Shown here one piece after another: positions 41,868-49,635 of a DNA stretch of 64,000 nucleotides. The first letter of the stretch is position 1; each line of letters begins with the position of its first letter. The notes beneath the pieces are model-generated. The model saw nothing but the letters and a program-made list of their open reading frames with translations. It did no database searches and was not told the DNA's origin. Source of the DNA: a virus; the IMG/VR virus record IMGVR_UViG_3300030118_003002, positions 32,235-96,234 of that record; one strand, 5' to 3'. Position numbers and translations under genes: made by a program.

Positions 41868-42029
41868 CGGGCTATGTGGGGTTCGAACCCACGACCAACG
41901 GGTATCTTTTGAGGAAAATGAGTTATGAGAAAGTATAACACATAATCGAAAATTGAGCAAGACCCCATTTATTACTTCGATAAAACCTCATTAAAAGCCC
42001 GTTGCGCTACCTGACTGCGCCAATAGCCC
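41868..42029 (-). tRNA. tRNA-Lys(UUU) with 88-nt intron (41904-41991) at position 37/38
   Basis: Acceptor GGGCTAT/ATAGCCC, D arm GCGC/GCGC, anticodon stem ACGGG/CCCGT, T arm GTGGG-TTCGAAC-CCCAC; exact BHB (CTTT/AAAG helix, TAA and ATA bulges, TGAGG/CCTCA); no encoded CCA. Confidence 0.93.
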
Positions 42030-42350: not shown

Positions 42351-42884
42351 TCATTCTTCAGAAGATTCACTTGACAAAAGCGACTCAACGCTCCCATCCC
42401 AAGTTTGTTCTTTGAACATTTTACTTAGTTGGGTTCGTGCTTTCTTTGCCTGTGCCTTTGCATAATCTTCAGCAGATTCATATTGTCCTCCACCGGATTT
42501 AGCATGACGAAGACAAAGAGCCGCCATAATTCCATCATGGTTGTAGTAGTTAACTGCCGCTTCTTCAACGACACCGCAAATGCGGTCAATTACTACTCTA
42601 ACACTTGTTGGAACTGCGCTCTTTGCACCTTTGCGGCCAAATGGTGAACCATCACGGCCTTTCAATAGTGCCTTTAGCGCATTTGCCGCAGCATCTCTTT
42701 CATTCGGGTTATTTTGACCGACTTCAAGGTGTAGTTGAACCACTTGTTTCAACGCACCATCAATCGCATCTGTTTCTAGGTATTCATTCGTTTCAATAAC
42801 GATACTGTCCCACTTTACATCATCCATATTATCATATCCTACCCCGCCTATTTTGGGGGCAGACTCTCCATATGCTAACACCAT
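42351..42884 (-). CDS. Paralog family member 1 (likely start MDDVKW)
   Basis: Shares W..., KG..S...V..V.D.I, RHAKSGG..Y, K...WDGS with 45887-46447 and 46697-47185. Confidence 0.7.
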   Translation of the reverse strand: MVLAYGESAPKIGGVGYDNMDDVKWDSIVIETNEYLETDAIDGALKQVVQLHLEVGQNNPNERDAAANALKALLKGRDGSPFGRKGAKSAVPTSVRVVIDRICGVVEEAAVNYYNHDGIMAALCLRHAKSGGGQYESAEDYAKAQAKKARTQLSKMFKEQTWDGSVESLLSSESSEE

Positions 42885-43822: not shown

Positions 43823-43936
43823 TACTATGAATTACACTATTTCATATAGGGTTGGCTTCGCTAATCCTCAAAGTTACAACCATATGGTATGTCTTTTGAA
43901 CATACCTTATGATAAAGTAATTAAATTGATATTAAT

Positions 43937-44438: not shown

Positions 44439-44822
44439 GTATTGTTCAGCAAGGGTTCGCTACCTTTGTTGGATAGTCAGTGGCCGAATACACTAGTAGC
44501 GGTGTAAGGCACTTCTTAACCGTGTGGTGCGGGTTTCACCCATTATCGGAAGTCCTATTGGATAGTATGATAGTGGTTCTTGAAGCGTATGTTCCTCAAA
44601 AGGGCATCAATTACCAATTGATGAATACATGAGAAGGTAGTGCGACCCTCAATTGAACAAAAGCAGTAAATTGAGTTACAAACTTAGTGGTGCAAGATAA
44701 TCCACTCCACTTCCTAGAACCAGAAATGGTATCTTCTAGGCTGACACCCTTTAGAATTCAGCGAGAGAGTCGAAAACTAAGCCGGTGGCTATCTCTCTCG
44801 CTGGATTCGCCTAAATTTTTTT
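44439..44822 (+). ncRNA. Putative structured non-coding RNA (~380 nt)
   Basis: Promoter upstream, terminator hairpin plus T-run downstream, long-range pairing 44442-44466 with 44634-44660, no credible ORF. Confidence 0.6.
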
Positions 44823-45602: not shown

Positions 45603-45637
45603 AGGGGATTGGGGCGAAAGCCCCATCCTCTTTTTTT
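45603..45637 (+). terminator. Hairpin (GAAA-type loop) plus U-tract
   Basis: GGGGATTGGGGC-GAAA-GCCCCATCCTC-TTTTTTT. Confidence 0.8.
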
Positions 45638-45886
45638 AACAGATAAGGTAGCACAAAGTCGCTACCATATGGTTGTGTCACACTTTGGTAATACGGAGTA
45701 TTTGACACAACCCTATTAAAAAAAATAGTGGGCGGAAGGGGAAACAGCGAGTGTCCTTTGGTTTTCTCACTGTTTCCCCCTTCCTACTCTTCCGCATTGA
45801 CCTATGTTCAGATTCAATTGTAATTTTAACAGGTGTTACCGGATGCCCGTAGGAATCGTATGGGGCTTAAAGGGATTGAATCGGTA

Positions 45887-46447
45887 TCACACGGCATCCT
45901 CCTCTTGGGATTCTTCCGTTTCTTCCTCGTCTGAGGAATTGGACTTCATAGGCGGAGTCATGCCTGTTAGTCCACTATCGCTCATAGTTCCATCCCAGCG
46001 ACCATCTTTCAATGCCGCTTTTAGAACTCTTACAGCCTTTGTTGCCATATCAGAAGCCAATGCTTCAATGTCAGCGTATGCGCCACCTGTTTTACCATGT
46101 GGCAGCATTACTTCAAGTAGCAAGTCAGCGTCTGAAATTGTGACAAATGCATTTTGAATGCGATTGCTCACAGAATCCACAACTGCCTGAATTGCTGGGT
46201 CTAGCGTTGAGCCACGACCTTTCTTTATTGGCGAGTTTGGGAGGGTCTTGCATAATGCCCGAACTGCTTCCCAAAAACGATTTCTGTCATCATCAGATGC
46301 GGCTGAATCGCCAGCATCTAGATTTACTGTTATTACTGCTCCCATAGCCCCTGCATCATTATGCTCAAGCCATGCTCTAATTTCGTTAGACTTTGTTATC
46401 CACTTTTCTTGTTCCATTCTTTTCATCTCCTGTATTGACTCCATCAA
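45887..46447 (-). CDS. Paralog family member 2 (likely start 46417, MEQEKW)
   Basis: Identical block DRNRFWEAVRALCKTLPNSPIKKGRGSTL shared with 46697-47185. Confidence 0.8.
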   Translation of the reverse strand: MMESIQEMKRMEQEKWITKSNEIRAWLEHNDAGAMGAVITVNLDAGDSAASDDDRNRFWEAVRALCKTLPNSPIKKGRGSTLDPAIQAVVDSVSNRIQNAFVTISDADLLLEVMLPHGKTGGAYADIEALASDMATKAVRVLKAALKDGRWDGTMSDSGLTGMTPPMKSNSSDEEETEESQEEDAV

Positions 46448-46587
46448 TACCGACTCAATCCCTTTGAGCCACTACTATCCAATAACCTACTTTATGTAAG
46501 GTTGCTCAAAGATGCAACCATATGGTAATAAATATTCATGTAATGAATACACTTTGGTTTTACTACCCTAAAATAAAAAAATAAGGC

Positions 46588-46661
46588 ATAACCCGCATAG
46601 GCTGATTAATCATACAGATAATAGATATAAGAATCGGAATTATCAGTCCTATGCGGGTTAT
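46588..46661 (-). terminator. Long hairpin with U-rich tract
   Basis: ATAACCCGCATAGG...CCTATGCGGGTTAT 14-bp perfect stem; A-run on the left. Confidence 0.65.
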
Positions 46662-46696
46662 TTGGTGAATCTGGGGCTTGGGGATTAAAGCATCAA

Positions 46697-47185
46697 TCAT
46701 TCTTCCTCGTCAACCTCCTCAACGGGGAATGCTTGGGTTAATAGCCCTTGACGACTACCATCCCAAATTTGCTCTTTGTATCTCTTCTTGAGAGAATTAA
46801 CTACTGTTTGTGACATATATGCAGAATACTCGTCAGCAGTGAATAAACCACCACCACTCTTTCCATGCTTCAATAGAAGCATATTCATGTCACCAATAGC
46901 AAAAAAATCACTAGCGGCTTGAGCGACTTCATCAGATATTGAATCTAAAACCGCTTGGACTTCATTAGGTAGTGTTGAACCACGACCTTTCTTAATAGGG
47001 CTATTTGGAAGTGTTTTACACAAGGCTCTAACTGCCTCCCAAAATCTATTCCTATCTTCATCTGTTTGTGCTTCATTACCGGCTTCAATATTAACTTGAA
47101 TAACCTGTCCCATAGCACCTGCGTCATTTTCCTTTAACCATGCAATAATCATGGCAACTTTATCATTCCATTTTTCTATTTCCAT
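46697..47185 (-). CDS. Paralog family member 3
   Basis: Shares the identical block with member 2; GGAG RBS upstream. Confidence 0.8.
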   Translation of the reverse strand: MEIEKWNDKVAMIIAWLKENDAGAMGQVIQVNIEAGNEAQTDEDRNRFWEAVRALCKTLPNSPIKKGRGSTLPNEVQAVLDSISDEVAQAASDFFAIGDMNMLLLKHGKSGGGLFTADEYSAYMSQTVVNSLKKRYKEQIWDGSRQGLLTQAFPVEEVDEEE

Positions 47186-47502
47186 TCTTAATCAACTCCT
47201 AAAATGTGTTAGATTAATGCTTCAATCCCCGAAGCCACTACTATTTGACCTCGGACTTCATATAAGGTAGCCATTCGTGCCTCATTACCAAAGTTGCTAC
47301 CATATGCTTTTAACATTAATTGGCTGATATTATTATTTATACAACCATATGGCTTTGTCCAAATTTTTTATTTTTTATATTAACATTAAAATGCCTGTAT
47401 TTAACGGTTAATTAACCAATATTAACATTTGAAGGTTAATTATTTCGCCATTAAACCGGCATTATTATATGTTTTACAGCCCTCGCCTAATCCGAGATAT
47501 AC

Positions 47503-47864: not shown

Positions 47865-48218
47865 ATGACATGGAAAAATATACTAAAAGAAGATGAAGAA
47901 GATTACTATGAATCTGATACAAAAGAAGTAATTAAGGATTTTAACATCGCTAAAAATAACATGGAAGAGATGAAAAAGAGATTTGAAGAAATTGAATCTG
48001 TAGTTGAAGAATATGCAGATTTAGTGCTTAAATTTGATGAAGAAGTTATGAAATTGACAACGCTTCATGATAGGTTGGGATATGAAGGCAAATCTGCTAA
48101 TGAGTTCCGTGATAATGTATTTGAAAAATACAGATATGAAGCGTATGATAATTCTAAAAAGATAAATGCGCCTGTGGAAAAGATAGCAGAAAAATTGTTT
48201 AAACATAGAAGATTTTAA
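47865..48218 (+). CDS. W-tag protein (MTWKNILK)
   Basis: Shared N-terminal motif. Confidence 0.75.
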   Translation: MTWKNILKEDEEDYYESDTKEVIKDFNIAKNNMEEMKKRFEEIESVVEEYADLVLKFDEEVMKLTTLHDRLGYEGKSANEFRDNVFEKYRYEAYDNSKKINAPVEKIAEKLFKHRRF

Positions 48219-48230
48219 GGAGAGATTGAC

Positions 48231-48608
48231 ATGACATGGAAAGAAGTATTAAAATTAGACAGGGCTAAATTAAAGCGAAGGCGAGAAGAAGGAATGAAGT
48301 CAATAGAAGAATTAACTCAACTTCCCGAAGAAGATAGAGCATATATGAGAGGGGCTTTAGCGTCAGATATTGCGGCTGAAGAAATGGTTCATGCTGATGC
48401 TAGAAGGGAAAAAAGAAAGAGAACAGGTCTTTCAACAAAATATGACCAACCTTCGGGAACTCCAAGAAAAAATAGGCCACATAGAATGAAAGAAGAAGAT
48501 AAGCCAAAACCAAGAAAAAGGGCAAGCGAAGAAAGGTTGAGAGAACTAATTCGAAGAAATAAGCCACCTAAAATGGGGAGTAAAGGGTCAGGTTTTAGGG
48601 GACATTGA
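48231..48608 (+). CDS. W-tag basic protein (MTWKEVLK)
   Basis: Shared N-terminal motif; GGAG RBS. Confidence 0.75.
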   Translation: MTWKEVLKLDRAKLKRRREEGMKSIEELTQLPEEDRAYMRGALASDIAAEEMVHADARREKRKRTGLSTKYDQPSGTPRKNRPHRMKEEDKPKPRKRASEERLRELIRRNKPPKMGSKGSGFRGH

Positions 48609-48713
48609 TATGACAAGATGCAAACTACTAGATTCATGGTTAGATGCTAAGTCTAAAGAATTAGACAAGGCAGAAAAGAAAGCAGGTAAGGATTTGTTTA
48701 CAGGTGAGAAGAA

Positions 48714-48983
48714 ATGAGTTGGAAAGACGAGATTAAAAAAGATGTGCCTGAATTTGGCTATCCCAATACTAAAGTTATGCACAGTCCAATGGCAAAAGAC
48801 GCTGATAGAGTATCAGATTTGCTTTCTGAAGCATATAATAGATTGTATGATAATAAAGAATTACAAGAAAAATTCTTACTACTTCATAAAAGTGGCTCAG
48901 ATGGTTTAGATAAAGAAGAAGCAAAAAAGGATTTTGATGAAGGATTCAAAGCACTTGGTATATTCTTGAGTAATTTTAGGTGA
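48714..48983 (+). CDS. W-tag protein (MSWKDEIKK)
   Basis: Shared N-terminal motif. Confidence 0.7.
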   Translation: MSWKDEIKKDVPEFGYPNTKVMHSPMAKDADRVSDLLSEAYNRLYDNKELQEKFLLLHKSGSDGLDKEEAKKDFDEGFKALGIFLSNFR

Positions 48984-48989
48984 GAAGAA

Positions 48990-49271
48990 ATGAATTGGGA
49001 AGATATAATAAAAAGAAGAAAGATTTCTGATAATGAAAGAAACATAGACCCTAAATCGTTTAGAGAATATGGCATGAGTCCTTCTTATGAAGAACCAACA
49101 TCAGCAAAGGATGATTATTCCACAAGGTCGCCCGAACTACAAAAAGGGGCGCATACCTATCAACAAGGAATAGAAAAAATAGGCAGGTTGTTTATGAAAG
49201 GTAAAATTGATACCAAAAGATATGAACAATTGCGTGATGAATTAAAAGAAATATTTGGGATGGATGATTGA
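48990..49271 (+). CDS. W-tag protein (MNWEDIIK)
   Basis: Shared N-terminal motif. Confidence 0.7.
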   Translation: MNWEDIIKRRKISDNERNIDPKSFREYGMSPSYEEPTSAKDDYSTRSPELQKGAHTYQQGIEKIGRLFMKGKIDTKRYEQLRDELKEIFGMDD

Positions 49272-49272
49272 T

Positions 49273-49635
49273 ATGTCATGGGAAAATATCATCAAAAAAG
49301 ACAATATGTTGACTAATGTTGCTGATGCAACAGAACTAACCGCTATTTATCTTGGAGATGAACTCAATTATGATTATGATGGTAAATTTGCAGGTATGGG
49401 TTTTAGACGACACGCACTGAATTTAATCGCTGATGCTATGAGAGAAGGTAAATCAGATAAAGAAATTAGAGAAATGTTAAATGATGAAATACCGGATAGA
49501 TTAGAAAGGGATGAAAGATTCACAAAAAGACTTGAATTACATAGATTTAATTTCAAAGATATTAATTTCCCAGAAGCAATCAAAGATGCTTTAGACCCCG
49601 AAATAGAATATTTATCACATTTGAGAGATGATTAA
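49273..49635 (+). CDS. W-tag protein (MSWENIIKK; start reassigned)
   Basis: Internal ATG at 49273 begins the motif. Confidence 0.7.
   Translation: MSWENIIKKDNMLTNVADATELTAIYLGDELNYDYDGKFAGMGFRRHALNLIADAMREGKSDKEIREMLNDEIPDRLERDERFTKRLELHRFNFKDINFPEAIKDALDPEIEYLSHLRDD

Follow-up and report, generated by a model that had tools for sequence, protein, structure and literature searches.

Why should two neighbouring, related genes of a virus each be enclosed by an inverted repeat of their own, so that the start of each message is complementary to the sequence at its own stop codon? The question is raised by a stretch of 64,000 nucleotides (the window; bases 32235-96234 of IMG/VR virus record IMGVR_UViG_3300030118_003002, which has 96,234 bp and is rated complete), in which gene 1 (45887-46417) and gene 2 (46697-47185) lie on the minus strand, each between two arms of about 24 nucleotides. 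The original prediction held that each pair of arms forms a selected panhandle between the untranslated regions (UTRs) at the 5' and 3' ends of the mRNA, and a selected panhandle on the sense RNA is now strongly supported by covariation, by the specificity of each 5' arm for its cognate partner, by an asymmetry between the strands and by the fixed placement of the helix at the predicted transcript start (+1) and at the stop codon. On this evidence it is highly probable that a selected 5'-3' helix exists at the RNA level, and quite likely that the message begins with a hairpin and zips with the complement at its stop codon into a helix that encloses the open reading frame (ORF).

In mRNA sense the 5' arm of gene 1 (46447-46470) faces a 3' arm at 45864-45887, and the 24 positions comprise 22 Watson-Crick pairs, one G-U pair and one C.A mismatch. 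The arms of gene 2 (47212-47236 and 46675-46698) make 24 pairs, two of them G-U, around one bulged C at 47231. The positions and pair counts first given for these arms (23 of 24 pairs with one G-U for gene 1; 24 pairs with two G-U and one bulge for gene 2) are thus found again. Each 3' arm was also said to begin in the stop codon, and it does so: the TGA codons are at 45889-45887 and 46699-46697, the gene 1 arm starting at the last stop-codon base, and in both genes CCA comes after the arm. The arms were further claimed to differ between the genes with pairing retained, and this is borne out by inner pairs that differ between the two paralogues yet match within each gene. Both 5' arms can alternatively fold on themselves, that of gene 1 into a local hairpin GGCUCAAA/UUGAGUC with a G-rich loop and that of gene 2 into a 5'-terminal hairpin GCUUC/GAAGC with loop GGGGAUU. 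One claim needs revision: the gene 1 reading frame had been extended to a TTG at 46447, but its start is most likely the ATG at 46417, since this aligns with the M-E-x-E-K-W of the paralogue and has an AGGAG (46427-46431) 9 nt upstream. With the revised start, the 5'UTRs of both genes are 51-53 nt long and an AGGAG stands 9-10 nt before the ATG, that of gene 2 being a Shine-Dalgarno (SD)-like element at 47196-47200.

Within this genome the two genes rank first and second among 218 ORFs for the duplex energy between their 5' and 3' flanks (z -5.4 and -3.8), and chance is excluded as the source of both repeats. The third-ranked ORF (genome 18074-19846) was considered as a further enclosed gene and rejected, as its duplex is merely patchy. 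When both full-length messages are folded, the panhandle is predicted in the minimum free energy structure and in the centroid of each, with z scores of -5.1 and -6.0 against dinucleotide shuffles.

The evidence for selection comes from the gene family. Protein-guided searches yield about 90 viral and metagenomic loci, which usually hold a tandem of two or three paralogues under separate promoters, and a comparative set of 86 non-redundant genes in 34 clusters at 85% amino acid identity was drawn from these loci. In all but about six of the 86 genes (four clusters are without it) the start of the 5'UTR forms a helix with sequence that lies at the stop codon or shortly behind it, and this helix is still seen where protein identity has fallen to about 35%. 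In most lineages the stop codon is where the 3' arm begins, and the core run varies from 11 to 41 pairs across the family (24 bp in the window), being longer where an inner helix follows an internal loop. The helix is missing from four distant clusters and from the window's own third paralogue (42351-42827, minus strand), which has 39% identity to gene 2 in alignment A1 and serves as an internal negative example. The region of this third paralogue (42351-42884, minus strand) carries a local leader hairpin, CUGCCCC...GGGGUAG, and a classic hairpin plus T-run 3' of its stop codon.

The arms themselves are almost wholly different between clades (e.g. 5' arms GCUACGGGGCGUAGUGGGGGCUUAA, GUCUCAUGGGGAGA and GCUUCAAAGGGAUUGAAGAGUGAAUUAGG) and are complementary within each gene. 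The mean duplex energy is -38.8 kcal/mol for cognate flanks, as compared with -24.1 for non-cognate flanks and -21.7 (standard deviation 6) when the 3' flanks are shuffled; of the 34 clusters, 22 have their cognate 3' flank as best partner and 28 have it in the first three places. Except in a GGG/CCC core, three to six canonical pair types are seen at each helix position over 30 clusters. Given 28 whole messages aligned simply with MAFFT, RNAalifold still recovers the long-range core, the GC/AU swaps in it being 15:10 and 20:8. A further comparison comes from a clade whose 12 sequences align well: 93.9% of its cells are paired, against 84.2% after shuffling (none of 500 shuffles as high), both partners have changed in 9 of the 27 pairs, covariation scores 0.308 as compared with 0.147 (again 0/500), and slid registers lower the pairing to 33-54%. 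Covariation among homologues, on which the original prediction staked its case, is therefore present, about 30 diverged lineages keeping the pairing by matching mutations.

The placement of the helix can be read from the promoters. Six promoter units between 43.8 and 47.4 kb share a CCATATGG palindrome, a 12-nt TATA element of the form CC[C/T]TA..AT.AAG and a spacer whose length is always 19 nt. Two genes nearby that appear to be leaderless have their ATG (43937 and 44916) exactly where this spacer ends, and in genes 1 and 2 the same point is occupied by the first G of the 5' arm; because the leaderless neighbours with the same promoter have their ATG at that spacing, the 5' arms are predicted from promoter geometry to start at the RNA 5' end. 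The earlier placement of a TATA-like box ahead of each arm thus stands, and its distance of about 20-25 nt becomes exactly 19 nt past the 12-nt element. The promoter of gene 1 (46490-46525) consists of the palindrome at 46518-46525 and the TATA element CCTTACATAAAG at 46490-46501; that of gene 2 has the TATA-type element CCTTATATGAAG at 47256-47267, with a CATATGG half-site upstream at 47300-47306 and the full palindrome at 47345-47352. Of the 78 homologous copies that could be tested, all have the palindrome on one and the same strand, at a distance of 76-137 nt upstream of the ATG. The 3' tail of gene 1 (45718-45779) holds a hairpin (45766-45779 with 45738-45751) followed by a T-run at 45718-45725, and that of gene 2 (46570-46661) a perfect 14-bp hairpin (46648-46661 with 46588-46601) followed by a T-run at about 46570-46582, both likely terminators. 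From the TATA spacing and these downstream T-runs both arms are predicted to lie on one transcript, and each gene is proposed to be its own transcription unit.

Other features of the promoter system may be recorded here. The palindromes are found at window positions 43880, 44387, 44860 and 45665 on the plus strand and at 47352, 46525, 45672 and 43887 on the minus strand, and palindrome, TATA element and 19-nt spacer to an ATG or RNA start suggest that short transcription units, probably early ones, form a regulon around a strand-switch region. Facing promoter-like units occupy both strands at 45644-45730, between the terminator of the plus-strand operon (45610-45635) and the 3' tail of gene 1; transcription from one of them would run antisense into gene 1's tail and 3' arm, and from the other antisense into the plus-strand operon.

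The helix has a recognizable anatomy. In most of the 30 clusters the 5' arm forms a 5'-terminal hairpin of 5-8 bp with a G-rich loop (mean free energy -6.7 kcal/mol, mean z -2.3) whose stems covary, e.g. GCUUC/GAAGC, CCUCAA/UUGAGG, GUCUC/GAGAC and GCUGCG/CGUGGC, and in about half of the clusters the 3' arm folds as a complementary hairpin with a C-rich loop (-4 to -12 kcal/mol). The nascent RNA can therefore fold locally first and zip into the panhandle later. In the long helix the outer half is GC-rich and conserved and the inner half AU-rich and variable; at the conserved outer end GCU-U-CG in the 5' arm faces CG-U-GGC in the 3' arm, and the U-U mismatch between them, three pairs from the end, is replaced in the window genes by the bulged C or the C.A mismatch. 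Past the 3' arm comes (U/C)CC(C) and then one of two forms, either a short U-tract, the next promoter being about 55 nt distant, or, in the clade of the window, a tail of 85-140 nt that ends in a long hairpin and T-run; in the compact clades CCCUUU(U) follows the arm, and in the window's clade the first run of five or more Ts is 85-140 nt further on.

Resemblances to known RNA elements were sought in this anatomy and mostly set aside. A tRNA-like NCCA tail is not conserved, CCCA following the 3' arm in 5 of 29 scored clusters with UCCC the commonest (9), and neither is a kink-turn or tandem G-A loop, those positions being Watson-Crick pairs in the window genes. In some lineages (L006, L007, L008 and their relatives) a UGAA in the 5' arm stands opposite GGAU/GGAAU, and this internal loop could form tandem sheared G-A pairs next to the U-U, in a kink-turn-like or loop-E-like manner. 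Rfam gives no match on arms or UTRs at gathering score or at E<=1, and a scan of viral contigs for the 5' hairpin motif was too unspecific, with 120 or more mostly unrelated matches. The sequence GGGAUUGAAGC resembles the 3' end of some archaeal clustered regularly interspaced short palindromic repeats (CRISPR) and might conceivably mimic a host repeat.

Could the arms act as DNA and not as RNA? They are true inverted repeats around a single gene, each is partly palindromic as protein-binding sites often are, and the family lies in tandem cassettes each with a palindromic promoter site; the arms might be double-stranded sites for inversion or excision of the cassette, or be bound in pairs by a DNA-binding protein, perhaps the one that the gene itself encodes. 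The original argument on this point, that the wobble pairs work only on the transcribed strand, is weak in the window itself, because three G-U pairs stand against one C.A mismatch and a C.A is a G-U on the other strand; it reaches significance only across the family. There both strands were folded and internal single mismatches counted, since a plain count of G-U against A-C is inflated by a folding program that scores G-U as a pair, and of the internal transition mismatches 22 are G-U on the sense strand, as compared with 6 for which the G-U would fall on the antisense strand. The sense duplex is also the more stable in 25 of the 34 clusters. All 78 testable copies have the same orientation to the promoter, with no flipped cassette among them; the outer ends at the predicted +1 and the inner ends at the stop codon have no reason to be there in a recombination site; the cassette holds the family ORF alone, which matches no family in Pfam or PHROG, a recombinase or transposase included; and the different arms of two paralogues in one genome could not both be read by one protein. 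Selection on the sense RNA is thus favoured by wobble bias, uniform orientation and the position of the helix ends, and a DNA element is quite improbable. If the element is RNA, it could still be two local ones, a stabilizing 5' hairpin and a 3' terminator hairpin whose complementarity is a by-product of a shared palindromic motif, with no long-range helix. The 5' hairpin is indeed conserved and covaries by itself, and the 3' arm folds locally in about half of the clusters and is followed in the compact clades by a terminator-like CCCUUU. However, the complementarity runs past the palindrome into 8-15 inner pairs that differ between clades and paralogues and are matched gene by gene, the loops are complementary (G-rich against C-rich) and not identical, and the long-range helix is far more stable than both hairpins and dominates the predicted ensemble, all of which leaves this explanation with a low probability.

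A long-range helix might instead be a processing site, the substrate of a double-strand- or structure-specific nuclease that trims the 3' tail or releases or circularizes the ORF. The layout recalls that of rRNA precursor stems, a nuclease might recognize the conserved U-U mismatch or bulge that lies three pairs in from the outer end, and the 85-140-nt tail past the 3' arm in the window's clade could be what is removed. Set against this, no lineage inspected has a bulge-helix-bulge motif (two opposite-strand 3-nt bulges with a 4-bp helix between them), the helices showing no irregularity beyond a 1-nt bulge and mismatches of the U-U or C-A kind; Pfam searches find no viral RNase III or RtcB; a 5' arm at the predicted +1 leaves no 5' leader to remove; and the compact clades have a U-tract and the next promoter directly after the 3' arm. 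Processing is consequently judged improbable, and of the roles originally suggested, circularization finds no support (no bulge-helix-bulge, no viral RtcB, and a primary 5'-triphosphate end predicted) and neither does packaging. Least probable of the alternatives, and very much so, is a translational switch in which the 3' arm and the ribosome-binding region compete for the 5' arm and translation is thereby limited to completed transcripts, or in which an SD-like G-run is masked. The inner 5' arm does have a 6-7-nt complement between SD and AUG in some lineages, and the C-rich 3' tract recalls a UCCCC anti-SD motif said to exist in the 3'UTR of Staphylococcus aureus icaR. Yet the predicted unpaired probability at -14 to +4 is 0.54 without the 3' arm and 0.59 with it (up in 13 clusters and down in 6), and in the window genes the SD by the start codon is outside the helix.

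For the closed message that is preferred here, a mechanism can be proposed. The message would begin with a short hairpin exposing its G-rich loop, and the complement of the 5' arm, starting at the stop codon and containing a C-rich tract, would become available once synthesis is complete; the arms would then pair, with the ORF and its ribosome-binding site closed into a loop. G-loop and C-tract may nucleate this pairing in the manner of the complementary loops of antisense RNAs. The GC-rich outer 10-12 bp with its U-U mismatch or bulge would be a clamp hiding the 5' end from 5'-end-dependent decay, and the AU-rich inner half, since it reaches the stop codon, would be opened by every terminating ribosome, as we infer from the usual ribosome footprint. 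Opening and re-forming at each termination could tie the closed state to translation. Pairing, cognate specificity, sense-strand preference and anchoring at the predicted +1 and the stop codon are established from the sequences, and end protection together with coupling to termination or to ribosome recycling is plausible. Given a real RNA helix, the favoured function is end protection and stability, coupled to translation termination, to which we assign a likelihood somewhat short of even; termination-linked ribosome recycling or re-initiation ranks second and is possible though doubtful, a platform for a regulatory or autoregulatory protein is unlikely, and a processing site more unlikely again.

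Several points weigh against the closed message or against parts of it. The homologues are related by descent, so that the cluster counts are not fully independent, and RNAduplex extends helices generously, which makes their boundaries approximate and was corrected for in the strand test only. We infer the transcript ends and the presence of both arms on one RNA. In this genome the helix is confined to one gene family, whose protein function offers no explanation for it. The 5' hairpin alone would already protect the 5' end, leaving the need for a 3' partner unexplained. Finally, the first T-run of the window's clade lies 85-140 nt beyond the 3' arm, and a pure protection of both ends is weakened because the helix is then not at the very 3' end.

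A more far-reaching proposal, to which we give only a small likelihood, is that the panhandle is an RNA-only counterpart of the eukaryotic closed loop, in which terminating subunits would be handed back to the ribosome-binding site of their own message, i.e. termination-reinitiation in cis. The inner end of the helix would be anchored at the stop codon and, in its other arm, some 20-30 nt upstream of the AUG, and the GC-rich outer clamp would stay shut as the AU-rich inner half opens in each round. If this were true, viruses infecting archaea would have evolved mRNA circularization by direct base pairing.

The proteins themselves do not account for the confinement of the helix to this family. 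Gene 1 encodes a 176-residue paralogue of the 162-residue, all-alpha gene 2 protein, the two being 49% identical in alignment A1 and 55% over their local match. Family members have 155-185 residues, the conserved motifs LPNSPIKKGRGS, HGKSGGG and WDG, and an acidic tail that is present also in gene 2. The modelled structure is all-alpha with a predicted local distance difference test (pLDDT) score of 84.7. Neither Pfam nor PHROG has a matching family, Foldseek finds nothing in the PDB at E<=0.001, and the ESM Atlas gives no usable match; BFVD yields two unnamed viral proteins only, presumably family members, and VIA-align only generic three-helix-bundle matches over residues 1-66 with Z of about 8.

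As to the host, the evidence points to an archaeal, magrovirus-like virus. The genome has a GC content of about 34%, its promoters are TATA-type, and its genes include those for a family-B DNA polymerase, an ATP-dependent DNA ligase, a thermosome-type chaperonin and a class II ribonucleotide reductase, a gene set that fits the magroviruses of Marine Group II archaea. The chaperonin and the DNA ligase are named in the description of the magroviruses (Philosof et al. 2017, PMC5434244), a paper in which the words promoter, UTR, hairpin, palindrome and inverted repeat are absent. An archaeal host is supported also by a tRNA at window positions 41868-42029 (minus strand; Rfam, 53.6 bits), because its 162-nt span carries an insert of about 90 nt; it was missed by ARAGORN under bacterial settings. 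The homologues of genes 1 and 2 originate from Tara and other marine metagenomes, and a phage DNA database search gave no match.

Two further observations were made nearby. An ORF-less segment of about 380 nt at 44439-44822 (plus strand) stands behind the same promoter type with a T-run at its end and is a candidate viral non-coding RNA; within it, 44462-44716 gives a sub-threshold, full-length match to the Rfam manA RNA RF01745 (25.8 bits, where the gathering score is 55.2; E 6e-4; model positions 1-192). From 47865 to 49635 on the plus strand, and beyond, many small ORFs start with M-[ST/N]-W-x-[DENK]-[IV]-[IL]-K, e.g. MTWKNILK, MSWKDEIK, MNWEDIIK and MSWENIIK, in proteins that are otherwise different.

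How does this helix relate to known cases in which the two ends of a message pair? To our knowledge, direct end pairing of prokaryotic mRNA has been documented by experiment for a handful of bacterial messages only, and a limited literature search found no report of a panhandle in the mRNA of an archaeal virus. One close likeness is to the Bacillus subtilis hbs mRNA, in which a 14-bp 5'UTR-3'UTR helix modulates the access of decay nucleases and couples the stability of the message to its translation (Braun, Durand and Condon 2017, PMC5737220). Both are long-range helices between the 5'UTR and 3'UTR of one prokaryotic mRNA, but the viral helix is longer (24 bp in the window), starts at the predicted +1 and at the stop codon of an archaeal-type viral transcription unit, and has a conserved G-loop 5' hairpin and a U-U irregularity; its support comes from covariation over about 30 lineages, that of hbs from experiment. 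RNase Y is a bacterial enzyme, and the nucleases acting on the viral messages would therefore differ from those of hbs. In icaR the C-rich 3' partner reportedly covers the Shine-Dalgarno sequence and creates an RNase III site, whereas the viral SD stands beside the AUG outside the helix, its predicted accessibility is unchanged, and no viral RNase III match is found. That 5'/3'-UTR pairing controls the translation of icaR mRNA is reported in PMC3868564. For haloarchaea, reporter assays indicate that translational control needs both UTRs, and no defined helix is mentioned in the abstract of that work (Brenneis and Soppa 2009, PMC2636863). The viral genes share this archaeal theme of joint action by 5' and 3' UTRs, here with a defined, covarying helix that is known from sequence alone.

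More distant comparisons are instructive for the geometry. In rRNA operons leader and trailer form processing stems, with bulge-helix-bulge motifs in archaea, and there as here the flanks pair around a giant loop; the viral stem, however, encloses a protein-coding ORF, lacks both that motif and a 5' leader, and implicates no processing enzyme. RNA virus genomes have panhandles and cyclization sequences, and RNA I and RNA II of ColE1 meet by loop-loop kissing. As in these, terminal complementarity closes the molecule and complementary loops could nucleate the pairing, although there the pairing serves genome replication or antisense control in trans, and here the mRNA of a double-stranded DNA virus would pair within itself. 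What the locus offers is a defined, long, covarying helix, placed at the predicted +1 and the stop codon, in a group of marine archaeal viruses that is abundant and uncultured. With about 30 compensatory variants supplied by nature, it is a mutable object with which to ask whether archaeal messages can close and what closure does to decay and ribosome recycling. It thus appears to extend the direct 5'UTR-3'UTR pairing of the hbs and icaR type, the complementary and evidently selected segments for such pairing being present here as well.

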